A DNA stretch of 64,000 nucleotides from Acetobacteraceae bacterium. Lineage in GTDB: Bacteria > Pseudomonadota > Alphaproteobacteria > Acetobacterales > Acetobacteraceae. The stretch spans positions 4,215,514 to 4,279,513 of the forward strand of contig OZ240665.1 of assembly GCA_965198565.1 (NCBI GenBank), written 5' to 3'. The position numbers and the translations under genes are program-made. The notes under the pieces were generated by a model, which had not been told where the DNA came from, made no database searches, and worked only from the letters and a program-made list of their open reading frames with translations. This document shows, piece after piece, positions 692 through 49,332 of this stretch (the first letter of the stretch is position 1; each line of letters begins with the position of its first letter).

Positions 692-3600
692 TCAAGTTGT
701 AGGGGTATGCGCGTCGAGCAGGTCGTCCGGGAGCGGCATGACGGTTGCGGTGCGGGTCCAGACCAGAGCGCAGTGGACGGGGCGGCCGGGGACGATCTGC
801 TGCAGCACGGCGCGATAGGCGGCCATCTGGCGCAGGTAGAGCACGGGGACGCGGTCGGGGGAGTCGGGGGCGTCGCGGTTGGTCTTGTAGTCGGCGAGCA
901 GGACGGCGTCCTCGAGGATGGCGAGGCGGTCGACCTGCCCGGCGATGACGGCGCCGCCGACCAGGCCGGTGAGCGGCTGCTCGGCGCGGCCATGGGGGCC
1001 GAACAGGGGGCGGAGGGCGGGGTGGTCGAGGATGGCCATGACCTCGGCGGCGAGGCTGGCGGGGGCGCCGGCGGCGCGGACAGTGGCGGCGACGGCGGCG
1101 GGGCGGTCGGCGGCCGGGAGGTCGGGCGCGTGCTGCAGCAGGCGGTGTACCAGGGTGCCGCGTTCGAGGGCGGCGGCGTTGGTGGCGAGGGGCGAGGCGG
1201 CGTGGGGGACGGGGCCGAGGGTGGCGTCGGCGGGGCGGCTGGGGGCGAGCGGGCGCGGGCGGGCGGGCTCGGCGGGGGGCGGATGCGGCACCCAGTCGGG
1301 CGGCAGGCCGGCCCAGGGGGGCATGGGCGCGTGATCGGGCGGGGGGGGTGCGGCGGCTTGGCGGGCCGGGGCGGTTTGCGGCGTGGCGTGGATGAGGGTG
1401 CCGTCCTGGTCGGTGGCGCCGAGGCGGGCCATGCCGCGCTGCACGGCGGAATACCAGCTTTTGTCGTCCAGGGGGCGGTGGGTCTGCCAGCCGCAGACGA
1501 CCAGGCGGTCCTCGGCGCGGGTGAGGGCGACGTAGAGCAGGCGGTTGTATTCCTCGAGGCGTTTGGCCTTTTCAGTTTCGCGCAGGCGGGTGACGGCGCG
1601 GCAGCGCAGCGCGGCGTACGGGGACCAGAGTGAGAGGTCATCTCCCGTCCAGACCAGGCTGCCGCCGTCGGGCGGGAGGGCGGTGGTGTCGGGCAGGATC
1701 ACCACGGGGGCTTGCAGGCCCTTGGCGCCGTGCACGGTCATGACGCGGACGGCGTGGCCGGCGCCCTCGGCCTCGCGCTTCACCTCGGCGCCGGATTGGC
1801 GCAGCCAGTGCAGGAAGCCCTGCAAGGACGGCGGGTGGGACGCGGCGTGGGCCAGGGCGGCGCCCAGCAGCTCGTCGATCGGTTCGGCGGCTTCGGGGCC
1901 CAAGCGGCGCAGCAGGCGGGCGCGGGCGCCGAGCGGGCCGAGGGCTTCCACCAGCAGGGCGTGGGGGGCGGCGTAGTCGACGCGGGCGAGCAGGGTCTGC
2001 AGAAAGCTGGTGACGCGCTGCCACTCTGGGCGCTCGGCGGCGCGGGTGCGCAGGGCGTCCCACAGCGACCAGCCGCGGCCGATGGCAAGTTCCATGAGGT
2101 CGTCGTCGGTGAGGCCGCCGAGCGGGCTGGTGAGCACGCAGGCGAGGGCGAGGTCGTCCTCGGGCAGCAGCAGGGTGTCGCAGAGGGCGAGCAGGTCCTG
2201 CACGGCGGGTTGCTGGGTGAGCGCCAGGCGGTCGAGCCCGGCGACGGGGACGCCGAGGGCTTTGAGGCGGCGCACCACGGCGCGGGCGAAGTCGCCGCGG
2301 CGGCGCACCAGGATGAGGATGTCGCCGGGCTGGATGGTGCGGCCCTGGCTGGGCAGCGGGGCGGTGCCGATGGCGGCGGCGACCCATTGCGCCAGGGTGT
2401 CGGCGAGGAGTTGCGGCGCGGTGGTGAGGCCGTGGTTGCGGCGGGCGACGGCCCAGGGCTCGGGCAGCTCCTCCTGCGGGCGGGGGGTGATGGGCCAGAG
2501 CTCGACCTGGCCGGCGTGGCCGACGCGATGGGCCTGATGGTGCAGTTTCTCGTCGGGTCCGAGGACGCCGGCGGCGGCGGTGAGGTCGTCGAAGACGGCG
2601 TCGACCAGGGCGAGGACGGGGGGGGTGGAGCGAAAGGATACGTCGAGCACGGTGTCGCGGAAGTTGCCGGAGGCGGCGATGGCGGCGTCACGCATGATGG
2701 CGCGCCAGCGGTCGAACTCGGCGGGTTCGGCGCCCTGGAAGGAGTAGATCGACTGCTTGCGGTCGCCGACGGCGAAGACGGTGCGCTTGGTGTCGCGGGC
2801 GGCGGCGCCGGCGAAGAACTCGGCGGTGAGGGCGCCGGCGATGGCCCATTGGTCGGGGGCGCTGTCCTGCACCTCGTCGAGCAGGACGTGGTCGAGGCCG
2901 CCGTCGAGCTTGTAGAGCACCCAGGCGGCGCCGGGGTCGATCAGGAGCTGACGGGTGTGGCTGATGAGGTCCTGGTAGTCCATCAGGCCGGCGAGTTGCT
3001 TGCGGCGCTGCAAGCGGGCGAAGACGGGGGCGGCCAGGGTGAGCACGGCGTTGGTGGCGGCGGCGACGTGGAGGGCACGGCGGTCGTCCTCCACGGCAGC
3101 GACGCGCTCGGCTTCGGTGAGGAGAGTTTCCTGCAGGCCGGGCTCGGCCTGGGACCATTTGCCGCGGCAGAGTTTGCGCGGATCGCCGTCTTCGCGGAGC
3201 AGGAGGGCGACCCACTCGGACCAGTGCTCCTGGCGCAGCTCGGGCGGGAGGTCGAGCCAGCCGCGCAGGTTGGCGGCGGTGGTGTGCTCGCCGGGGCTGG
3301 CCTTGGCGGAGGCGAGCTGGGCGATGGCGTCGCGCAGGCCCGGCGTGCTGGTGGCGACGGCGGCGGCGATCAGGCCCGCGTCGTCTCCGGACACGTCCAG
3401 GGCGCGCTCGAGGCGGAGCAGGCGGGCGGGGGCGGGCAGGTTCAGCACGGGCTCGAGGCGCTGCACGTGGGGGCGCAACTCGGCCAGCAACTTGCCGAAC
3501 TCGCCGTCGCGTACCAGGCCGGCGATGGTGCGCAGGGCGTCCGGGTCGGCGTCGGCGATGGCGGCCTCGCGGGCGGCGGTGAGCTCGGCGTGGCTGTCGG

Positions 3601-4075
3601 CGTCCTCCATCAGGCGGAATTGCGGGGCGATGGCGGCCTCGAGCGGGAAGCGGCGCAGCAGGGACTGGCAGAAGGCGTGGATGGTGCTGATACGCATGCC
3701 GCCGGGCAGGTCCAGCACGCGGGCGAACAGGGCGCGGGCGCGGTGGGTGACTTCGGGGTCCGGCCGGATGGCGCGCTCTTTGAGGGCGGCGATCAGGGCG
3801 GGGTCGTCGAGGGTGACCCATTGGCCGAGGATGCTTTGCAGGCGCAGCGCCATCTCGGCGGCGGCGGCCTTGGTGTAGGTGAGGCAGAGGATGCGGGCCG
3901 GGTCGGCGCCGGCGAGCATGAGGCGGAGCAGGCGGTCGATCAGCAGCTTGGTCTTGCCCGACCCGGCAGAGGCGGCGACGAAGGCGGAGACCTCGGGGTC
4001 GGAGGCTTGGTGCTGCAGGCTGTTGGCGCGGGCGGAGGCTTGCTCGGGGAGAGTGCGCGGGGGAATGGCGTTCAT
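692..4075 (-). CDS. addA: double-strand break repair helicase/nuclease AddA
   Basis: ASAGSGKT Walker [41 protein letters not shown]-terminal GQVDRL..DYKT nuclease; ATG 4075 overlaps the addB stop. Confidence 0.96.
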
Positions 4076-7000
4076 TCCGGGTCCTCCAGCGCGGCCCATT
4101 CGGCGACGCGGGCGAGCTGGGTGTAGTCGGAGAAGCGCGGGGCGCGGCCGGGGTGGGGCTGGGAGAGATAGGGGTGCGCCGGGTCGTCGAAGGCGGCGAC
4201 CAGGGCGGCGAGGCTGGCGCGGGCGGTGGCGACCGCTTCGGGCAAGGCGCCGGCGGTCTTCAGCCTGCCTTCCACTTTGCCAGGGACGTGGCCGCCGGTG
4301 AGATGCCAGTAGGTGAGTTCGCCGACGGGGTGGGCGAACTCGGGGCCAAACGCGCCGGATTCGGCCATGGCGGCTTCCAAGGGGAGCTGGGGCGCCAGGC
4401 CGCTTTCGACCTCCTTGTTGGAGGGGGGCGTGCCGGTCTTGTAGTCCAAGATGGCCAGGGTGGCGTCGGCTCTGCGCTCGATTCGGTCGGCGCGGCCGGT
4501 GAGGACGAAGGGCGGTTCGGTGGCCAGCGTCCAGGTGCCGTCGTGTTCGGAGACGATCTCGACCGGCTTGGCGGCGACCCGGCGGGCGGCTTCCTGCTCC
4601 GCGACCCATGCGGCGATGCGCTGCAGGCGGGGGCGCCACCAGGCAGCCAAGGCGGGGCGGAGGTCGGCTGCGGCCAAGGCGGTTTCCATGGCCGCGGCAA
4701 GGCGGGCTTCGGCGTCGGGCGGGAAGGTGGTGCCGTGGGCGGCGAGGAAGGCGTGGATGGCGTCGTGGACGACGGAGCCGTAGTCGGCGGCGTCGGCGGG
4801 TTCCTCGATGGGCGGCAGGGCGCGCAGGCGCAGGATGTGGCGGGCGTAGAGGGCGTAGGGGTCGCGCAGCCAGGTCTCGATCTCGGTGACGCGGAGGCGG
4901 CGGGGGCGCACGGCCACGGGCGGGCATGGCGCGGGGGGGTGTAGGCGGGGGACGGGGCCGGCCGGCAGGTCCAGCGCGCGGGCCCAGGCGGCGGCGGGGT
5001 GCTCGGGCAAGTGGCTGCCGGCGCCGCGGAGCATGGCCTCGAGCCGTTGCAGCCAGCGGGCGGGGACGGCGGGGGCGCCGTCGCGGCGGCGGGAGCAGGA
5101 CAGGACGACGTGGGGGGCGGCGCAGGCGGTCATCACCCAGTCATGCGCCATTTGGCCGACGGCCGCTTCGGGCGAGGGTAGGCCGGCGGCGGCGCGCATC
5201 GGGCGGCTGAGCCAGGGGCCGGGGTCGGCGGCGGCGGGCCAGACGTTTTCGGCCAGGCCGCCCAGCACGATGAGGTCGGCGCGCTGCAGGCGGGCCTCGA
5301 GCAGGCCCCAGATGAAGATGCGGGGGTGCTCGGCGCCGGTGCGGCCGCGCAAGGCCCGGCGGCTGCGGACGGCGACGTTGGCGAGCAGTTGGTCGAGCAG
5401 GCCGGGGAGCGTCGCCGGGTCTTGCGGGGGGAGGACGGCCAAAGCGGGCATGGCCTGGGCGAGCAGGGTGGCGAGGGCTTGGCCGTCCTCGCCGGACCAG
5501 AGGCGTTCGGCGCCGGGTTCGGCCGGGGTGGCGGCGAGGGCTTCGGCGGCGGTGAGCAGGGCGGCCAGGGCGGCTTGGGGCGGCGTGCGGGGGGTGGCGG
5601 CGAGGGTGAGCAGCGGGGTGAGGCAGGTGTCGAGGGCGGCAAGCAGGCGCTGGGCCGAAGGGGAGCGGGCGATGCCGTGGAGGCCCGGGAGGCCGGGCTT
5701 GGGGGCGGGGCCGCGCAGGCCGTCGAGTTCGAGGCTGCGGGCGGCGGCGCGGCAGGCGGACGGCGTGAGGCCGGCGGCGGCGAGCGGGTGCTTGAGCAGG
5801 GCGAGCAAGGGGACGGGGCGGAGCTGCTCGGCGATGGCGGCGGCGAGCAGGCGCAGGAACACGGCGGGCGGGGTGGCAATGAGGGGCTCGCCGGCGCTGT
5901 CGTCGGCGATGACGCCGAAGCGGCCGAGCTCGACGGCGACGCGGCCGGCGAGGTCGCGGTCGGGGGTGACGAGGGCGGCGCGGTGGCCGGGGGTGTCGAG
6001 GGCACGGCGGAGGATGAGGGCGATGGCGACGGCCTCTTCCTGCTGGTCGGCGGGGGTGAGGCGGTGGAGCTGCTCCCTCTCCCTCTGGGAGAGGGTCGGG
6101 GTGAGGGGCGGACTCGGCTGATTCGGGGGCGTGGGCCTACCCTCACCCAACCCTCTCCCAGAGGGAGAGGGCTTTTTGGGGGGGTGGGGGGTGGGGGTGC
6201 GCCAGGCGGTTAGGGCGACTGCGGGGAGGAGGGCGCGGTTAAGCAGCTCGACGCGCTCGGAGGGGGTCGCAGACGGCGAGTCCCATGGCTCCACGTCGCC
6301 GCGGGTGGCGCCGAGGGCGGTGAGCAGGCGGCAGAGGGCGGACTGGGGGTGGGTGTCTTCCAGGGCGTCCCAGGCGGGCTCGGGAAGCGCCAGGTCTAGG
6401 CCGGGGAGCACGACGCGGCCGGTGGGGAGGCTCGCCACCACACGCAGCAAGCGGGCCACGGCGGGGATGCCGCCCGTCGAGCCGGCGGCCAGAACGGGAT
6501 GCAAGGGCGGGCGGTCCTGCCAGGCGCGGGATTGGGCGTCCAGCAAGGCGACCTGGCGAGCGGCGGGGTTCATCAGGGCGTTGTCCGCGAGCCAGGCGGG
6601 CCAGGCGGCGGTCACGATCTGCAGGAAACGCAGGGTGATGCCCCAGTGCGCGGCGTAGTTCTCGGCGGCGAGGCGGGGCAAGGCTTGGGCCAGGTCGACC
6701 TCGGCGCGCTCGGCCTCGTCCATCAGGGCGGCCAATTCGGCGGCCAAGGGCCAGGCGCGGTCGGCGGTGGCGGGGGCGCCGAAGCGGCCCTCCAGCGCCA
6801 TGATCAGGCGGCAGAGATGGGCCAGGCGCACGGGGGCGGCGACGGCTTGGGGCAGGTGCAGGCTGCCGGCCATGGCCAGGGGGGCCTCGTCCAGCGCGCC
6901 GAACGCGGTGATGCGGGGGAGCAGGCAGGGGCGGCCCTCGGTTTGGGCCAGGAACGCCTCGGTGAGGGAGCGGGCGGCGCGGCGGGTGGGGAGCAGGATC

Positions 7001-42743: not shown

Positions 42744-43361
42744 TTAGTGGGCGGGGTTGAAACCTAGGAAGCCGACGGCAGGGTTGGCGGTTCCGCCGTT
42801 GCCGGCGAACAGCGCCGGGTTTTGCGGCCGCGCGGCAGCCTCGGTCACCCGATTGCGCGGCCGTGTCGCGGCGCGGGCTTGGCGGGCGGCGCGGCGCTCG
42901 GCGGCGGTGGGTGGCGGGGCTGCTAGGGCTTGAGTGGACGTCTGCGGACCACGCTGGCCGCCACCACCGCCGCGCAACGAAAGCAGCAGGAAGGTGATGT
43001 CGTTGCGCGCGAGATCGACCGACAGCTCGGTCGGGGTCAGGCCGAGCAGGTTGGTGGCGTCAAGGTCGGCGCCGCGCGAGAGAGCGTCACGCGCGGAGCC
43101 GATGTCCCCGCGGTTGATGGCGTCGAACAGCGCCTCGGTCGGTGGCAGGTCGGCGGTCGCGCGGTCGGCCGGGACCATGGTATCGGGCCGGGCCCGGGCG
43201 CCGGGGACGGCGGCGGGCGGTGGCGCGGCCGGCTTCAGCGAGGGCTCCGGCGCCTTTGGTGCGCCCGACCCGAGGCCCTGCTGCGTGAGGCCCTGAGCGA
43301 AGCACGCCGGTGCGACGAAGAGCAAGCCGACCAGGAGGGGGGCAAAGTATCTGAACGTCAT
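42744..43361 (-). CDS. secreted ankyrin-repeat-like protein
   Basis: Signal peptide; LFDAINRGD...ARDALSRGADLDATNLLGLTP..L. Confidence 0.75.
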   Translation of the reverse strand: MTFRYFAPLLVGLLFVAPACFAQGLTQQGLGSGAPKAPEPSLKPAAPPPAAVPGARARPDTMVPADRATADLPPTEALFDAINRGDIGSARDALSRGADLDATNLLGLTPTELSVDLARNDITFLLLSLRGGGGGQRGPQTSTQALAAPPPTAAERRAARQARAATRPRNRVTEAAARPQNPALFAGNGGTANPAVGFLGFNPAH

Positions 43362-43408: not shown

Positions 43409-44353
43409 TCACTGGGGCGCGGGCGCGGGCGCTGGAGTTACGGCCTCTGGCGTGACCGCCGCTTGTGTCGCGGCGCTTTGAGGACGGTTCATCATGGTGC
43501 CGGTCATGGGGATGAAGAACACGCCGACATCGCGCTTGGAATGCACCTTGCCGGCATCGTCCTTGGTGTAGATGTAGAGCACCTGGCCGCGCTTGAACGG
43601 CTGGCCGATGGGGATGACCATGCGGCCGCCGGGCTTCAACTGCTTGAACAGGTCCGGCGGGGGATACTGCGCGGCGCAGGTGACGATGATGATGTCGAAC
43701 CCGCCCGGGACCTCGGGCCAGCCGAAATAGCCGTCGCCGACGCGGCTCGAGATGTTGTCGTAGCCGATCGGGTTCCACAGCTTTGCGGTGGCGGTGCCGA
43801 GCGGCTGGATGATCTCGATGGTGTAGGCGTGCTGCACGATGCGGGACAGCAGCGAGGACTGGAAACCGCTGCCGGTGCCGATCTCCAAGGTCACGTCGCT
43901 GGCGGTTGGGCGACATACCTGGGTCATGTAGGCTTGGCCGAGATAGTCCGACAGGGCGGAGCCGTAGCCGATGGCCCAGGGCTTGGGGTCGGCCTCGTAG
44001 GCTTCGCCGCAGAAGCTGCGGCCGTCGGCGTAGTTGTATTGGAAATACTCGCGCGGCACGGTTTCGAAGGCCTGCAGCACGACGGGGTCGGCGGTTCCCA
44101 GGTGGGCCTTCAGGTATGATTGGATCAGCGCGAGGGCGGCCGGTTTGCGGGCCTGGATGGCGGCGAATTGGGCGTCGGTGAGTTCGAGGGGGCGGCCGGA
44201 CTTGTGCATCGCGGCCTCCAACGCCTGGCGCGTCCAGGATGCGCCTGCGGCGAGCGGGGCGGCTTCTGCGGCGAGCGGGATGATGGGGGCCAAGGCGCAG
44301 GCGCAGGCTGTGGCCAGGGCATGACGCCGGGTCAGGTGGGGGATGGCTGCCAC
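43409..44353 (-). CDS. protein-L-isoaspartate O-methyltransferase (PIMT/Pcm)-like protein with a Tat-type signal peptide
   Basis: VPREYF, LEIGTGSGFQ, GDGYFGWPE, FDIIIVTCAA, QLKPGGRMVIPIG, FIPM; N-terminus LTRRHAL..AEA; GTG start inferred. Confidence 0.85.
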   Translation of the reverse strand: MAAIPHLTRRHALATACACALAPIIPLAAEAAPLAAGASWTRQALEAAMHKSGRPLELTDAQFAAIQARKPAALALIQSYLKAHLGTADPVVLQAFETVPREYFQYNYADGRSFCGEAYEADPKPWAIGYGSALSDYLGQAYMTQVCRPTASDVTLEIGTGSGFQSSLLSRIVQHAYTIEIIQPLGTATAKLWNPIGYDNISSRVGDGYFGWPEVPGGFDIIIVTCAAQYPPPDLFKQLKPGGRMVIPIGQPFKRGQVLYIYTKDDAGKVHSKRDVGVFFIPMTGTMMNRPQSAATQAAVTPEAVTPAPAPAPQ

Positions 44354-46824
44354 TGCACGGCCTTTCGCGAAGACATCGAGGTGGCCCAGGCTATAGCATA
44401 GGCGCCGGCCGCAGCCAGCAGGACCCAGTGGATTCCGGCCTGGGTTATCAGAAGGTTTGCCAACGGCGTGGCCACGACGCTGAAGGCGCCGTTCACGGCC
44501 CAGGCGAAGGGCAGCATCGGCCCCGACCCCAGACGGCGAAGACCGAGTGGAAACGGCATGCCGAGCGCCACCGACACCGGCGCCAGCATCGCCACGACGA
44601 TGGCCGCCCGCAGCGCCAGCGGCCAGGCGAGGGTGGCCAGCAGCAAGGGCGTGAGCACCTGGGAGGCGGCAATGCACCACAGGATGGCGAACGAGACCGC
44701 CACGGTGATGGCGCGGGGCGACAGCCGCTCCGCCAGCAGACTGCCGCCCCCGGAGCAGATCAGCATGGCGGTCAGGACGAGGGCGAAGGCGGCGGTGGGA
44801 TCGTTCAGGTAGAGGCTGGTGCGCTCGATGGCGGCGAGTTCGATCATGAGAAAGCCCAGGCCGAGGGCGGCGAAATAGGCCACCGGCCGCAGCGCCGCCA
44901 GGGCCGGCACGCCCAGCCGTTTGCCCGACCAGATCGGCACCGCCAGCACCAGGAGTGCGACCAGGGCCGCCTGGGCCAGCACGGCGAGGTTCACCACCTG
45001 GCCGATCTCGGGTTGGGGCAGGATTTCCAGGCGGCGCAGGATGGAGCCCAGGTGGTCGAGCCGCAGCACGTTGTAGTAGCTCGGGCGGTCCAAGGTGGCG
45101 GGGGCGAGCGAGAAGGCGGCGTCGGACGCGGTCGGCTGGTCGCGCAGCACCGCCATGGCCTCGTCGGCGATCGCGTCGTCCGACCCGGCGTCCGGCGCGG
45201 ACTCGCCCTGGTCGAACGAGACGGCTGGCAGGTCGTTGTAGAGGCCGGCGCGGGCGGCCACCACGTCGATGCCGGGGTAGTAGGAGACGTCGAACGAGCG
45301 GGCGTCGCACCAGCGCCGGATGGCGGCGATGTCGGCTTGGCTCCATGGGCGGGGGGAGAGGAGGATGCGCACGTTCCAGGCGGAGCGGTAGATGACGACA
45401 TGGGCCGCCGGGTCGGTCGCGCTGGTGGCGCCGGTCGCGCTGGTCGCGCTGGTGGCGCCGGTGGCGCTGGTCGCGCCGGTGGCGCTGGTGGCGCTGGTCG
45501 CGCGCAACGCGTCACGGGCGGTGGCGAGCACGCGCAGGGCATAGACCGGGAAGTCGCGGATCGACACCGGGAGCGAGACGATGCCGGCCGGCCCCACGGC
45601 CTCGAGGTCGGCCGCCACGCTCTCCACGGTGAAGGCGGCGGCGTTGACGGGGGTTTCGTCCAGGAAGTCGGACGATATGTCGATGACGTCGTAGGCGGAG
45701 GAGTGTCGCACGGCGGCCAGGAGGCTGGCGGCGGAGAGGTGCACGCTGGGACTGGTGGCGAGAGGCTGAGAGCCGCCGAGGCCGGCGCGCAAGGCACGGG
45801 CGATCACCGGGTCCGGCTCGAGCACGTCGAGCTGTCGCGCGCCCAGGGCCTGCGCCTCGGCGACGCGGAAGCCGCCGGAGCTGCCGGCGATCAGGGCGCG
45901 GGCGCCGGGGCGCAAGGCGTAGGGCAGCGCGGACAAGGCGGCGGGCGCGTAGCCGACGTCCAGCGGGCCGGGCTTGGGCAAGGCGGCGATGCGGGCGCCG
46001 TCGCGGTAGAGGCCGAAGGCGGTGGGCGGGCCGGGGAGGTTCAGCAGGGCCAGGTTGCTGGAGACGTCGGTGTCCAGCCGCTCGGTGAAGTCGTCGAGCT
46101 CGGCGTAGAGGCCGCGCGGGCTGACCACTTGGGCGACGGTGCGGCTGCCGGGCACGTGCAGCGGGGCGTAGATCGGTTTGAAGTCGTTGTAGGCGGCGCC
46201 GTTGGCGAGCAGCAGTCCGAGTTCGCCCACGACCAGGAAGGCGACCCCGGCGAACCCGGCCCGGCGGTCGGGCCCGAACCAGCAGGCGGCGGCGAACGGC
46301 AGCAGCAGCACGCTGACCAGCAGGAAGGGGTGGACGAGCCACATCAGCCCCAGCACCAGGGCGGACCCGGCGCCGGCGCCCAGCAGGTCCGCCCCGTAGA
46401 CGGCGCCGACGCGGTCGCTGTCGAGCACGAAGCAGAGGCTGATGTAGAGCCCGGTCAGGTAGAACACGGGCAGCAGGACGGCGTAGTAGAGCGCGATGAA
46501 GCCCAACTGGCCGCCGAACGTCGCCGGGTTCTGCATCTCGAGCGGGTTGAACGGGTTGGCGGCCATGGCCACGAAGCCGGCAGCGGCCGCCAACACGAGG
46601 GCCGGCGGCAGCCAGGCGAGCCAGAGCTTGGCCCGGCGCACCAGGGCGTCGCGGCACAGCGCCACCGTGACGCCACTGAAGGCGAAGCCGGCCATGGCGA
46701 TGGAGATCACCCAGTAGCCGTATTCGGACCACTTCGCGACGGCGAAATAGCGCGTGAGGGCGGTCTCCAGGCCGACCGCGGCGGCGGAGACCAGGAAGAC
46801 GGCGGGCAGCCGGGCGCGGATCAC
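44332..46824 (-). CDS. polytopic membrane protein with a spermidine-synthase-like SAM-dependent methyltransferase domain
   Basis: N- and C-terminal TM bundles; central ALIAGSSGG, LEPDP, YDVIDI; WAVNGAFSV; GTGA overlap with the upstream stop. Confidence 0.8.
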   Translation of the reverse strand: MIRARLPAVFLVSAAAVGLETALTRYFAVAKWSEYGYWVISIAMAGFAFSGVTVALCRDALVRRAKLWLAWLPPALVLAAAAGFVAMAANPFNPLEMQNPATFGGQLGFIALYYAVLLPVFYLTGLYISLCFVLDSDRVGAVYGADLLGAGAGSALVLGLMWLVHPFLLVSVLLLPFAAACWFGPDRRAGFAGVAFLVVGELGLLLANGAAYNDFKPIYAPLHVPGSRTVAQVVSPRGLYAELDDFTERLDTDVSSNLALLNLPGPPTAFGLYRDGARIAALPKPGPLDVGYAPAALSALPYALRPGARALIAGSSGGFRVAEAQALGARQLDVLEPDPVIARALRAGLGGSQPLATSPSVHLSAASLLAAVRHSSAYDVIDISSDFLDETPVNAAAFTVESVAADLEAVGPAGIVSLPVSIRDFPVYALRVLATARDALRATSATSATGATSATGATSATSATGATSATDPAAHVVIYRSAWNVRILLSPRPWSQADIAAIRRWCDARSFDVSYYPGIDVVAARAGLYNDLPAVSFDQGESAPDAGSDDAIADEAMAVLRDQPTASDAAFSLAPATLDRPSYYNVLRLDHLGSILRRLEILPQPEIGQVVNLAVLAQAALVALLVLAVPIWSGKRLGVPALAALRPVAYFAALGLGFLMIELAAIERTSLYLNDPTAAFALVLTAMLICSGGGSLLAERLSPRAITVAVSFAILWCIAASQVLTPLLLATLAWPLALRAAIVVAMLAPVSVALGMPFPLGLRRLGSGPMLPFAWAVNGAFSVVATPLANLLITQAGIHWVLLAAAGAYAIAWATSMSSRKAVQWQPSPT
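45415..45501 (-). repeat. in-frame 9-bp tandem repeat encoding (AT[S/G])x9-AT
   Basis: gcgaccagc/gccaccggc units inside the methyltransferase-like gene. Confidence 0.9.
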
Positions 46825-47675
46825 GGCAGGGCGGCGGCTTGCAGGAACCGCAGCATCTCGGCGTCGAACCGGGTCGAGTCGTCGATGAACAAGGCATGCC
46901 CCGCGTCGTCGTAGATGTCCGTCCATACCGCGGGATGGTGCTCGCGCAAATTCTCCGCCTGGCCGGCGAGGCGCGGGGTGACGATGTAGAGGATCGGCTT
47001 GGTGACGCTGTAGATCGCGTCGCGCCAGAACGAGCGGGGCACGGGGTAGGCCAGCAGCAGGGCGGAGGCGTCGGGCGGGGTGTGCAGCGCGGCTTCGGTC
47101 AGCTCGTCGAGGAACTCGGGGGTCTGCGGGCGGTGGAACATGCTGCGGACGAAGCGGGCCATGGCCAACTCGCGGGAAGCTGGCCGCACGGGGGGGCGGG
47201 AGGCGGGGCGCGGTTGGGGCGGCGGCGGGTTCTCGCCCACGGAGTTGTCAATCAGCACCAGGGCGGCGATGTTGGCGTCGCCGGCCTCGTGCACGTAGGC
47301 CAGGCAGTCCAGCACGCCGAGCGACCAGCCGACCAGCACGATGCGGCGGGTGTTCAGCACGCGCACGAGGTCTCCGATGTCGGCGCCGCGGCGGTAGGGT
47401 TCGTAGCCGGTGGCGGGGATGTCGCTGCTGCCCTGGCCGCGGGGGTCGAGCGCCACGACGTGGTAGCTGCGGGCGAAGAACTCGATCTGGAGCTGGAAGA
47501 TCCAGGCTGGCATGGTCCAGCCGGGGACGAACAGCAGGGTGGGCGCGGCGGGATTGCCGGCATCGATATAGTGCAGGCGGACGCCGTCGCTGGTGGTAAA
47601 ATATCGGTCGGCGGCGCGGCCGGCGCTCGGCAGGGCGATCAGCAGGAGTAGGATGAGCGGGGCGAGCGCACGCAT
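46821..47675 (-). CDS. secreted alpha/beta hydrolase
   Basis: Signal peptide; LLFVPGW, DPRGQGSS, GWSLG nucleophile elbow, AGHALF. Confidence 0.92.
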   Translation of the reverse strand: MRALAPLILLLLIALPSAGRAADRYFTTSDGVRLHYIDAGNPAAPTLLFVPGWTMPAWIFQLQIEFFARSYHVVALDPRGQGSSDIPATGYEPYRRGADIGDLVRVLNTRRIVLVGWSLGVLDCLAYVHEAGDANIAALVLIDNSVGENPPPPQPRPASRPPVRPASRELAMARFVRSMFHRPQTPEFLDELTEAALHTPPDASALLLAYPVPRSFWRDAIYSVTKPILYIVTPRLAGQAENLREHHPAVWTDIYDDAGHALFIDDSTRFDAEMLRFLQAAALP

Positions 47676-48213: not shown

Positions 48214-49332
48214 TCACCGAAGCGCCGCAAATGCCTCCAGCGTGCTTATGGTGTTGCCTGCGATGGCGCGGACCGTCTCCCGCTTGCGGGCATGTCCCTG
48301 ACGATTGAGCTCTTCCTCAACCATCTCCTTCGTGACGCTGCCGGGATGGATGTCCCACAAACGGCAGGCGACACGGCGGATGGTCAGTGTCTCGTCCTCG
48401 TAGGGCTGGTACTCTCCATTGCCCATGGCCTTGCGGGTCATGCGGTAATCCCTCCATAGCGTCTGAGCGGTGGAGGTATTGAACGTATCAGGGTGTGCGC
48501 GAAGTAGCTCCGCGCATGTGGCATCCGGATGGGCGGCAAGGAAGCGATGGGCAACTGCCTGCTGCGTTTCCTTTCTATCACCGCGTGCCTTGTGAGCCAT
48601 CGAGCCGGAGTCTGCTGGGCGATTTGGTCGTGTTGCAGGCTGCGCTGGGGCGGCCCGGACGGGATTTAATGAGCTGGCATGGCGTTCCCCAGCTAGCGCC
48701 ACCTCAGGCGTCACTGCCGGAGACATAGAAGGGGCATGGGAATGGAGGACGAGTCCGAGCTTCTGTGCCTTGGCATGGGCCTCCGCCAGGACGAGCGGCA
48801 GCTTGCGTAGCCGTTCGATGGAGTATGGCTTCAGCGCTTCACGCTCGGAGTAGCGGACGGATGCGGTCGCCAGCATCCGCTCGATGATCGGTATCTTCCA
48901 TGTGAGATAGGTCTTCTCGCAACGGCCACCGCCTTCGTTCCAGAGCGGTACGCCCTTGCCAAGAAAGTCTTTGACGACCGCCGTCTCCATTCGAATGCGC
49001 TGGGTTTTGCCGGCGACCGGCTCCTCGCGGATGTGGATGTGGCCGCCGCCCCCAGCTATGAGCATCGCGTTGATCACGAGTTCGGTCCAGATGTCGTCTG
49101 CCGGGCTCGTGTAGTGATCGAAGCGTCCGGGTTTGCTGCCGACCCTGGCATACCGTCCGGTCTCGCCGACATAGTAGCCGCCAGACCGGAACGCGATGAA
49201 ATACAAGCCGCCGCAATCCGGGGGCGCGGGGAAACGAAGTCCGCCATTCGATCCGACCGTGATCTCGCCGAGCGGCCGGAAGCCCAGCCTCTCAATAATT
49301 GTCGTGGCCCGGATTGCCGTTGGCTGCCGCAT
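48214..49332 (-). CDS. GIY-YIG-like nuclease domain fused to C-terminal helical repeats
   Basis: GLYFIAFRSGGYYVGET..R, later RMETAVV (Glu) and PLWN (Asn); lower GC; TTGCCA-16-TATCCT promoter at 49387-49360. Confidence 0.65.
   Translation of the reverse strand: MRQPTAIRATTIIERLGFRPLGEITVGSNGGLRFPAPPDCGGLYFIAFRSGGYYVGETGRYARVGSKPGRFDHYTSPADDIWTELVINAMLIAGGGGHIHIREEPVAGKTQRIRMETAVVKDFLGKGVPLWNEGGGRCEKTYLTWKIPIIERMLATASVRYSEREALKPYSIERLRKLPLVLAEAHAKAQKLGLVLHSHAPSMSPAVTPEVALAGERHASSLNPVRAAPAQPATRPNRPADSGSMAHKARGDRKETQQAVAHRFLAAHPDATCAELLRAHPDTFNTSTAQTLWRDYRMTRKAMGNGEYQPYEDETLTIRRVACRLWDIHPGSVTKEMVEEELNRQGHARKRETVRAIAGNTISTLEAFAALR

Follow-up and report, generated by a model that had tools for sequence, protein, structure and literature searches.

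In bacteria, methylation dependent on S-adenosylmethionine (SAM) is treated as a cytoplasmic process, and full-text literature searches returned neither a periplasmic methyltransferase system nor a route of SAM export. Searches for an exported or periplasmic PIMT and for the function of COG4262 also gave nothing relevant. The present work concerns a unit of three overlapping genes in a 64,000-nucleotide stretch of the genome of an Acetobacteraceae bacterium (assembly GCA_965198565.1, contig OZ240665.1, positions 4,215,514 to 4,279,513). This whole stretch is hereafter called the window, and coordinates without a locus name refer to it. The unit encodes a hydrolase (HYD), a polytopic membrane protein (MEMB) and a homologue of PIMT (the PIMT-like protein). 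Taken together, the three are read here as a periplasmic module of SAM-dependent methylation and de-esterification, in which MEMB would give access to SAM, the PIMT-like protein would methylate and HYD would process the ester. The probability of this reading is estimated at about 0.5.

Among the described systems, the closest characterised analogue of MEMB is NHMT of Aspergillus nidulans (AN4663), the sole characterised protein combining seven transmembrane (TM) helices with a spermidine-synthase-like (SpdS-like) domain. NHMT has an N-terminal seven-TM region extending to residue 215 and a SpdS-like methyltransferase domain, and it resides in the endoplasmic reticulum (ER) (PMC10349129). It is solely responsible for the methylation of His1 in secreted lytic polysaccharide monooxygenases, and its activity is lost upon deletion of the TM region or mutation of E340, the E340A variant being inactive (PMC10349129). 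Its authors note that SAM may be in limited supply within the ER lumen and cite the SAM transporters of the plant Golgi in this connection; SpdS-like methyltransferases such as NHMT and METTL13 attack nitrogen nucleophiles (PMC10349129). In the plant Golgi itself, pectin methylation involves the GoSAMT transporters of SAM, lumenal pectin methyltransferases and pectin methylesterases (10.1101/2021.07.06.451061; PMC9946043).

Gene order and co-inheritance of the unit

All genes and domains of the window described below lie on the minus strand. HYD occupies positions 46821-47675 (284 aa, by open reading frame calling), MEMB positions 44332-46824 (830 aa counted from a GTG start) and the PIMT-like gene positions 43409-44353 (314 aa, also counted from a GTG start). 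The stop codon of HYD and the GTG start of MEMB share the tetranucleotide GTGA at 46821-46824, read directly in the sequence, which points to translational coupling of these two genes. The following overlap, 22 nt long (44332-44353), is dual-coding: it specifies both the C-terminus of MEMB (..VQWQPSPT*) and the start of the PIMT-like protein (VAAIPHL..). The two overlaps were already reported in the first-pass annotation of this DNA, and the sequence agrees with it on both. In Acetobacteraceae loci, the peptides encoded by 44332-44353, (Q)WQPSPT of MEMB and MAAIP(H)L of the PIMT-like protein, are both kept, and therefore selection seems to act on two reading frames at once. The G+C content of the window is about 70%. 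Promoter and terminator scans gave no matches, and no second PCMT was found within the 64-kb window. Among sequencing runs of any kind, two of them untyped, none labelled as RNA was found for the region.

A pattern scan of 185,579 species genomes yielded 565 loci for the PIMT-like subfamily, the PIMT-like gene alone being present in at least 565 species-level genomes. The best 80 of the 565 loci were analysed, and almost all of these belong to Acetobacteraceae or Rhodospirillales. MEMB adjoins the PIMT-like gene upstream in 70 of the 71 Acetobacteraceae loci with enough flank, and HYD is located directly upstream of MEMB in every locus that could be scored (68/68), with a spacing of 0-42 nt. 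The overlap between MEMB and the PIMT-like gene is kept in most Acetobacteraceae loci. The sole exception among the 71 is a stand-alone copy of the PIMT-like gene (L054:8001-8855), which keeps the motif SRRAIL and has neither MEMB nor the hydrolase within 8 kb.

A profile built from distant MEMB relatives led to proteins with locatable contigs, and ten distant neighbourhoods obtained in this way were examined. The order hydrolase-MEMB-PCMT is present in L081 and in L088 (Lambdaproteobacteria), as well as in L089, where a TLC/MFS transporter gene precedes the three; the 4-nt overlap of HYD and MEMB recurs in L088 and L089. MEMB-PCMT pairs occur in L082 (Hydrogenedentes) and L083. The reverse order, PCMT-MEMB, occurs in L084 (Gammaproteobacteria) and L090, in the latter with a second type of esterase in front. 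A PCMT is immediately adjacent to MEMB in 7 of the 10 distant loci, and the same hydrolase is found upstream in 3 of these 7, with a different esterase-like gene in L090; in L085, L086 and L087 the PCMT is not adjacent. The trio is co-inherited across phyla. The proposal that the three genes form a unit is borne out by the Acetobacteraceae counts and by the recurrence of the trio, or of the MEMB-PCMT pair, in other phyla.

Export signals and catalytic motifs of the PIMT-like protein and HYD

The PCMT catalytic domain of the PIMT-like protein comprises aa 80-286 (43496-44116) and contains the invariant loop GYGSALSDYLGQAYMTQ, LEIGTGSGFQ (motif I), Glu180, GDGYFGWPE, FDIIIVTCAA and QLKPGGRM. The protein matches PF01135 (PCMT) at 123.5 bits against a Pfam cut-off of 20.3. 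The PIMT of Vibrio cholerae (4l7v) aligns to this domain with an E-value of 5.5e-30 and short gaps only, the SAM motifs being free of gaps. These motifs (LEIGTGSGFQ, E180, GDG and FDIIIVTCAA) are invariant among 20 aligned homologues. Each of the motifs listed when the sequence was first read, namely LEIGTGSG, GDGYFGWPE, QLKPGGRMVIP, LTRRHAL...AEA and SALSDY, was found in the translation. An AlphaFold2 (AF2) model of the protein reached a pLDDT of 50 from a shallow alignment and was not used.

In the substrate loop, SALS pairs with the QTIS of 4l7v, so that the substrate-binding Ser is kept while the flanking residues differ. The loop GYGSALSDYLGQAYMTQ is invariant across phyla in the orthologues of the PIMT-like protein. 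A loop that is altered yet invariant may mean a different, specific substrate. The canonical TIS loop is kept by the MEMB-coupled PCMTs of L084 (GHGQTISQPY) and L090 (VTIS), which argue for an ancestor of isoaspartyl (isoAsp) type. Repair of isoAsp residues, initially suggested as the purpose of the system, is unproven with a loop altered from QTISQP, in which the Ser alone is kept, and invariant in this altered form. Mildly acidic pH favours the isomerisation of Asp, and acidophiles are numerous among the hosts of the module; this would suit a repair role, and is offered as a thought only.

At its N-terminus, the PIMT-like protein carries a predicted signal peptide of the twin-arginine translocation (Tat) type, aa 1 to about 31 (44261-44353), with the RR codons at 44324-44329 and an AEA|A cleavage-type site after it. 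In the 20 aligned homologues the N-terminus reads MAAIPxLTRRxLL with invariant R9 and R10; a hydrophobic core rich in Ala comes next, together with sites of AxA type, and identity in the mature part amounts to 69-86%. The strict (S/T)RRxhh-type pattern is present in 73 of the 80 loci, and RR stands in a slightly different context in 2 more. The RR motif is found in at least 75 of 76 evaluable Acetobacteraceae loci, evaluable meaning the 80 loci minus 4 without the anchor motif used by the script. The Pfam TAT_signal model returned no match to the window protein at E<=0.01. Behind the signal peptide there is a conserved extension of about 35 aa (W40...KP71), in which W40 is invariant. The Tat-like leader on a PIMT homologue, as originally described, is confirmed by the invariance of RR in the 20 homologues and by its presence across the loci.

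The deposited gene call of the PIMT-like protein (P0001) has 266 aa, starting at Met49 and dropping the whole Tat leader. If this call were right, the protein would be an ordinary cytoplasmic PIMT, and the leader would either go untranslated or owe its appearance to the gene that overlaps it; the first 7 codons do overlap MEMB, and conservation there proves little by itself. Several homologue entries of 260-285 aa look cut short at the N-terminus like P0001. Against the start at Met49, most homologues are called at 300-330 aa and conserve sequence ahead of Met49, because of which the upstream GTG, and not a codon downstream of RR, is taken as the right start. Residues 8-48 are conserved as protein beyond the overlap, with invariant RR and W40, a hydrophobic core and an AxA site. 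The overlap with MEMB covers just the seven first codons, and therefore the conservation of RR and of the core is no by-product of the overlapping gene. In addition, orthologues of other phyla bear unambiguous signal peptides, and a Shine-Dalgarno-like GAAAGG box lies 7 nt ahead of the GTG. The cytoplasmic reading with a start at Met49 is effectively refuted and deserves almost no credence.

Signal peptides were found on all of the partner PCMTs of the distant loci (7/7). The leaders in L081, L082, L083 and L088 are of plain Sec type, two of them with Pro/Ala-rich linkers. The PCMT of L089 has a hydrophobic leader, that of L084 a signal-like leader without RR, and that of L090 the textbook Tat motif NRRAFLTG. 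Identity to the window protein is 56-62% for the Sec-type orthologues, which have the same invariant loop. Since all seven distant partners carry export signals, export is considered ancestral and the extracytoplasmic location a conserved property. The PIMT-like protein of the window is accordingly one of a family predicted to be extracytoplasmic from conserved Tat, and elsewhere Sec, signals.

The Tat pathway exports folded, cofactor-loaded proteins, and the twin-arginine leader is near-invariant in the Acetobacteraceae clade. The enzyme of this clade might be loaded with SAM in the cytoplasm, exported by Tat and limited to one turnover per molecule, with MEMB not acting as the cofactor supplier. 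Export with bound SAM had been suggested for the window protein at the outset. Against it, the close orthologues with the same loop and the same neighbours use Sec, cross the membrane unfolded and must fold outside; therefore SAM pre-bound for Tat export cannot be the general route of the cofactor, and the suggestion is abandoned as a general mechanism. A stoichiometric enzyme also fits poorly with a strongly conserved catalytic site, and the obligate partner MEMB would be left unexplained. Even when confined to the Acetobacteraceae, loading in the cytoplasm is judged improbable.

HYD begins with a Sec-type signal peptide of about aa 1-22 (MRALAPLILLLLIALPSAGRA|A, positions 47610-47675), read off the translation, and hydrophobic leaders are also present on its orthologues in L010, L081 and L089. 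It matches Abhydrolase_6 (62.5 bits) and Abhydrolase_1 in Pfam, which agrees with the secreted hydrolase of the first-pass annotation. The nucleophile elbow GWSLG (Ser118) and His260 within GHALF are both invariant in orthologues of three other lineages. The closest solved structures are the aryl esterases/perhydrolases 1va4 and 4x00 (E about 1e-27), and the match to the BioH model is weak (22.5 bits against a cut-off of 207). By homology, HYD is a serine alpha/beta-hydrolase of the aryl-esterase/perhydrolase type and is predicted to be exported. Such homology fits an esterase for small esters; methylesterase activity is not implied by it.

Predicted fold and topology of MEMB

In the AF2 model, MEMB (pLDDT 71.8 overall and about 90 in the helices) is laid out as seven helices (aa 6-206), a domain of about 400 aa and seven further helices (aa 604-816). 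The N-terminal bundle, aa 1-206 (46207-46824), consists of helices 6-27, 33-56, 65-89, 100-134, 136-160, 166-183 and 188-206; its N-terminus is predicted to be inside, and Glu20 and Arg25 in TM1 are conserved. The central domain, aa 207-603 (45016-46206), is predicted to be periplasmic. Within it, the putative SpdS-like or class I methyltransferase core covers aa ~297-421 (45562-45936) and includes the glycine loop AGSSGGF, Glu336 (LEPDP) and D382/D386. The C-terminal bundle, aa 604-830 (44332-45015), would end with the C-terminus inside.

MEMB belongs to a large family, with 6936 clusters at 50% identity for E<=1e-3 and 880 for E<=1e-30. The members have about 800 aa and are almost always labelled hypothetical. 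A very large bacterial family thereby shares the 7-TM and SpdS-like build of the NHMT described in PMC10349129. Full-length relatives with 26-34% identity, P0258 and P0387, pass PF01564 at the aligned position (29.7 and 33 bits against 22.9). A profile made from 15 diverse members matches the aminopropyltransferases 1uir (E 1.1e-12) and 1inl (E 8e-11). The sequence search of the PDB with a profile of close MEMB homologues gave chance-level matches only (DJ-1, E 0.1). With the MEMB model as the query, the best PDB matches of Foldseek were the spermidine synthases 1xj5, 6qmm, 1inl and 3gjy at a probability of 1.0, with a target TM-score of 0.45-0.51 and weak E-values of about 6e-3. From the family profile and the predicted fold, the central domain is assigned to the spermidine-synthase fold. 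The early label "spermidine-synthase-like" stands on these two grounds, and the likeness is undetectable in the window protein alone.

The glycine loop AGSSGGF follows the form GxxGG(F/Y) across the PCMT-coupled clade and lacks the acidic residue of GGGDGG. In aminopropyltransferases, this acidic residue selects decarboxylated SAM. Glu336 of the LEPDP motif, corresponding to the ribose-binding Glu, is invariant in 25 MEMB homologues, and D382 and D386 are invariant as well. The latter two lie near the DSTD position of aminopropyltransferases, where the spacing differs and the alignment is ambiguous. For comparison with NHMT, its protein sequence was rebuilt from the DNA of the supplement, the block lengths of the optical character recognition (OCR) text being repaired; this gave 558 aa with no stops and with E340 in register. 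In hhalign, NHMT 310-423 aligned with MEMB 305-421 at a probability of 91.9% and E 7e-7, which places E340 on E336. A weak collinear match extends over the preceding beta-hairpin. The TM parts of the two proteins gave E 0.16 and a probability below 1%, with a single NHMT sequence rebuilt from OCR text on the one side.

The orientation of MEMB in the membrane can be judged from the distribution of positive charge. In 25 close homologues the mean number of Lys and Arg residues is 12.2 on the predicted inside loops against 0.96 on the short outside loops, and in 15 relatives from other phyla the values are 11.8 and 0.8. A domain flanked by two seven-helix bundles, in a protein with both termini inside, would have to be periplasmic, and the central domain is predicted to face that compartment. 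An independent check of this topology is provided by P0388 (1162 aa), a natural fusion in which the MEMB core is continued by a single additional TM helix and then, at the C-terminus, by an esterase-like domain bearing an FSGGY motif. The additional, hydrophobic helix comes after the final helix of the core and a stretch of positive charge, and it puts the esterase domain outside if the C-terminus of the core is inside. This esterase domain shares 35% identity (E 3e-46) with an esterase-like protein of 424 aa that bears a signal peptide and is encoded upstream of the PCMT-MEMB pair in L090 (L090:2742-4016). MEMB had earlier been suggested as a possible supplier or relay of SAM. The access role is kept in the present proposal; with a domain predicted to be periplasmic and the build of NHMT, MEMB is probably not a mere relay.

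Other relationships of MEMB were also considered. MFS proteins and the fused MFS-spermidine synthase model (NF037959) were not matched at E<=1 by the window protein and nine relatives. An internal duplication of the two seven-helix bundles was rejected as well: the bundles align collinearly, TM1 with TM9, at an E-value of 0.073, which is not significant. A blastp comparison of HYD and the PIMT-like protein with 150 representatives of the MEMB family showed no similarity, from which it follows that none of these 150 is fused to either partner. A tandem repeat with 9/27-nt periodicity (45415-45503) encodes an (A/G)TSAT-rich insertion of 24 aa in the window protein. It consists of about 10 copies of GGTCGCGCT-like units, as written on the plus strand, and is unique to this genome. 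The insertion is missing from all 24 aligned homologues and sits in a loop of the central domain with a pLDDT below 50.

The window MEMB has a degenerate motif I, periplasmic SAM is not known, and the L089 operon holds a gene resembling nucleotide transporters of the TLC/MFS kind. The SAM-fold proteins could be viewed as binding proteins or pseudoenzymes, for example as a periplasmic receptor and a transporter for SAM, S-adenosylhomocysteine, methylthioadenosine or polyamines, with no methylation taking place outside. This is difficult to combine with the catalytic and SAM motifs and the substrate Ser of the PIMT-like protein, all invariant across phyla, and with the conservation in MEMB of the SAM-binding Glu of NHMT. 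An esterase partner, in one case even fused, fits ester chemistry better than uptake. The pseudoenzyme interpretation is held to have a small chance of being right.

A further possibility concerns the substrate. Instead of damaged proteins, it may be a non-protein component of the envelope, such as a free carboxyl group of D-isoglutamate or meso-diaminopimelate, or an amine, in the peptidoglycan stem peptide, or else an amino-acid lipid head group. MEMB would then act as a second, N-directed methyltransferase and the PCMT-like protein as an O-methyltransferase, and trimming of the product would fall to the esterase. Enzymes of lipid-linked or wall substrates typically have catalytic domains that face the periplasm and are seated on large helix bundles. 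The nitrogen-directed chemistry of NHMT and METTL13 and the retention of D382 and D386 near the DSTD position in MEMB would suit this view, and one specific substrate would explain the altered and invariant loop GYGSALSDYLGQAYMTQ of the PIMT-like protein. Speaking against it, L084 and L090 encode MEMB-coupled PCMTs that still have the (Q/V)TIS loop of isoAsp enzymes, and genes for wall or lipid synthesis are not consistently linked in the neighbourhoods. The problem of SAM supply is the same as in the module acting on exported proteins or peptides. A non-protein substrate is possible and, on balance, rather unlikely.

Proposed module, its neighbours and known systems

The preferred interpretation is a periplasmic methylation and de-esterification module. 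The working parts of all three proteins would be situated on the outer side of the cytoplasmic membrane. SAM would reach the periplasmic side by way of MEMB, passing through its helix bundles or along them, and MEMB might use SAM itself, like NHMT, and/or supply the PIMT-like partner. The latter would convert a free alpha-carboxyl of isoaspartyl type, in an exported protein or in a peptide of the envelope, into its methyl ester, which HYD would remove or process. The view of the first-pass annotation is retained insofar as the trio is envelope-targeted, methylation-related and works together; Tat-carried SAM as a general mechanism and an ankyrin gene are no longer part of it. The module is robust and undescribed, and its parts are variants of known enzyme kinds in an unexpected compartment.

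Several observations weigh against this interpretation. We know of no source of SAM in the bacterial periplasm. The window MEMB has no Pfam or NCBIfam match and fails PF01564 as well; its glycine loop GSSGGF departs from the textbook GxGxG or GGGDGG. About one fifth of its AF2 model has a pLDDT below 50, mostly in the central domain, and the TM bundles reach no significant similarity when compared with NHMT, with MFS or with one another. The PIMT-like protein misses the pcm equivalogs of NCBIfam (138.1 against a cut-off of 188 for NF001453 and 104.5 against 159 for TIGR00080), and its substrate loop differs from QTISQP, which may point to a substrate other than isoAsp. In 3 of the 10 distant loci no PCMT adjoins MEMB, so that this family also functions in its absence, and some lineages (L083, L084) lack the hydrolase.

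A more extensive form of the proposal can be advanced tentatively. The 14-helix MEMB would itself conduct SAM and present it on its outward domain, feeding an exported enzyme of PIMT type, with the esterase making the mark reversible, and this would hold in several phyla. If so, the combination of seven TM helices with a SpdS-like domain would be an ancient and universal solution for methylating exported molecules, from bacteria to the fungal NHMT. If the periplasmic module works as proposed, the chemistry by which the envelope is modified or repaired would gain a new class, and a route of SAM into an extracytoplasmic compartment would be identified. The 7-TM methyltransferases of the eukaryotic secretory pathway, which are poorly understood, could then also be studied on a bacterial model that is amenable to genetics. 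In the annotation, two corrections arise: the PIMT-like gene has been called with a truncated start, and MEMB stands as "hypothetical" almost everywhere.

The neighbouring genes were considered separately. In a subset of Acetobacteraceae, comprising 32 loci with L091 (L091:2915-4489) among them, a gene for an MFS transporter of DHA2 type (524 aa) lies upstream of the module, often accompanied by an Acyl_transf_3 gene; the window lacks this arrangement. In L089, positions 2879-4144 encode an MFS protein whose N-terminus matches the ATP/ADP-transporter-like signature TLC (PF03219) at 31 bits, and this gene overlaps the start of the hydrolase gene. Within the four-gene operon of this one locus it is a candidate transporter of a nucleoside cofactor. 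A linked transporter as a general supplier of SAM was rejected: the DHA2-type MFS occurs in 32 loci only and reflects local synteny, and the TLC/MFS gene occurs in one locus. The UbiE/Methyltransf_11-type protein encoded directly after the exported PCMT in L081 (L081:8397-9242) has no signal peptide and gives no evidence for further exported methyltransferases. A link with AmmeMemoRadiSam genes had been raised as a possibility; none of these genes was seen in the 11 Pfam-annotated neighbourhoods, and the link is not supported.

Directly upstream of the module, an open reading frame of 372 aa (48214-49332, minus strand) has no Pfam match and a G+C content of 0.64 against about 0.70. Downstream, an open reading frame of 205 aa (42744-43361) begins 47 nt past the stop codon of the PIMT-like gene, and its start resembles a signal peptide. 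This gene was first described as ankyrin-like. It has no match in NCBIfam and none in Pfam even at E<=10, the ankyrin signature being absent, and it is confined to the closest relatives, at varying positions and sometimes elsewhere in the locus. The 205-aa reading frame is not part of the module.

Compared with canonical PIMTs (V. cholerae 4L7V, E. coli 3LBF), the PIMT-like protein agrees in fold and family and keeps both the SAM motifs and the Ser of the substrate loop. It differs from them in its predicted cleavable Tat/Sec signal, in the extension W40...KP71 of about 35 aa, in the loop SALSDY instead of QTISQP and in being paired with MEMB and not with surE/nlpD. PIMT homologues of the PCMT superfamily are also known from ribosomally synthesised and post-translationally modified peptides (RiPPs), where they act on a specific peptide in the cytoplasm (FxLD, TIGR04364; ATP-grasp maturase, TIGR04188). 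These two models match the PIMT-like protein weakly, at 61 bits (cut-off 320) and 60 bits (cut-off 380), and, unlike in RiPP systems, genes for a precursor peptide or a maturase are not near the module.

The methylation of chemoreceptor glutamates by CheR and CheB resembles the module in pairing a SAM-dependent carboxyl methyltransferase with a methylesterase. Unlike the module, this system is cytoplasmic, has other folds and lacks a membrane partner with a SAM fold. Spermidine synthases and other aminopropyltransferases, including the membrane-anchored PRK03612 type (COG4262), appear homologous to the central domain of MEMB. In contrast to them, the MEMB domain is predicted to lie outside the cell, polyamine genes are not linked to it and the window protein fails PF01564. 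The GoSAMT system of the plant Golgi follows the same logic as the proposed module, with carboxyl methyl-esterification outside the cytosol, membrane import of SAM and reversal by an esterase. Its proteins are eukaryotic and unrelated and its substrate is a polysaccharide, whereas for the bacterial module SAM transport is only inferred.

NHMT, whose own topology was not mapped in PMC10349129, differs from MEMB in lacking the second seven-TM bundle behind the domain, and also in that MEMB is a protein of bacteria with a PCMT and an esterase coupled to it. In both proteins the seven TM helices come first (1-215 in NHMT against 1-206 in MEMB), and the SpdS-like domain follows at the same offset. 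NHMT acts on proteins in the secretory pathway, a compartment equivalent to the periplasm, in which the bacterial module would find its substrate.

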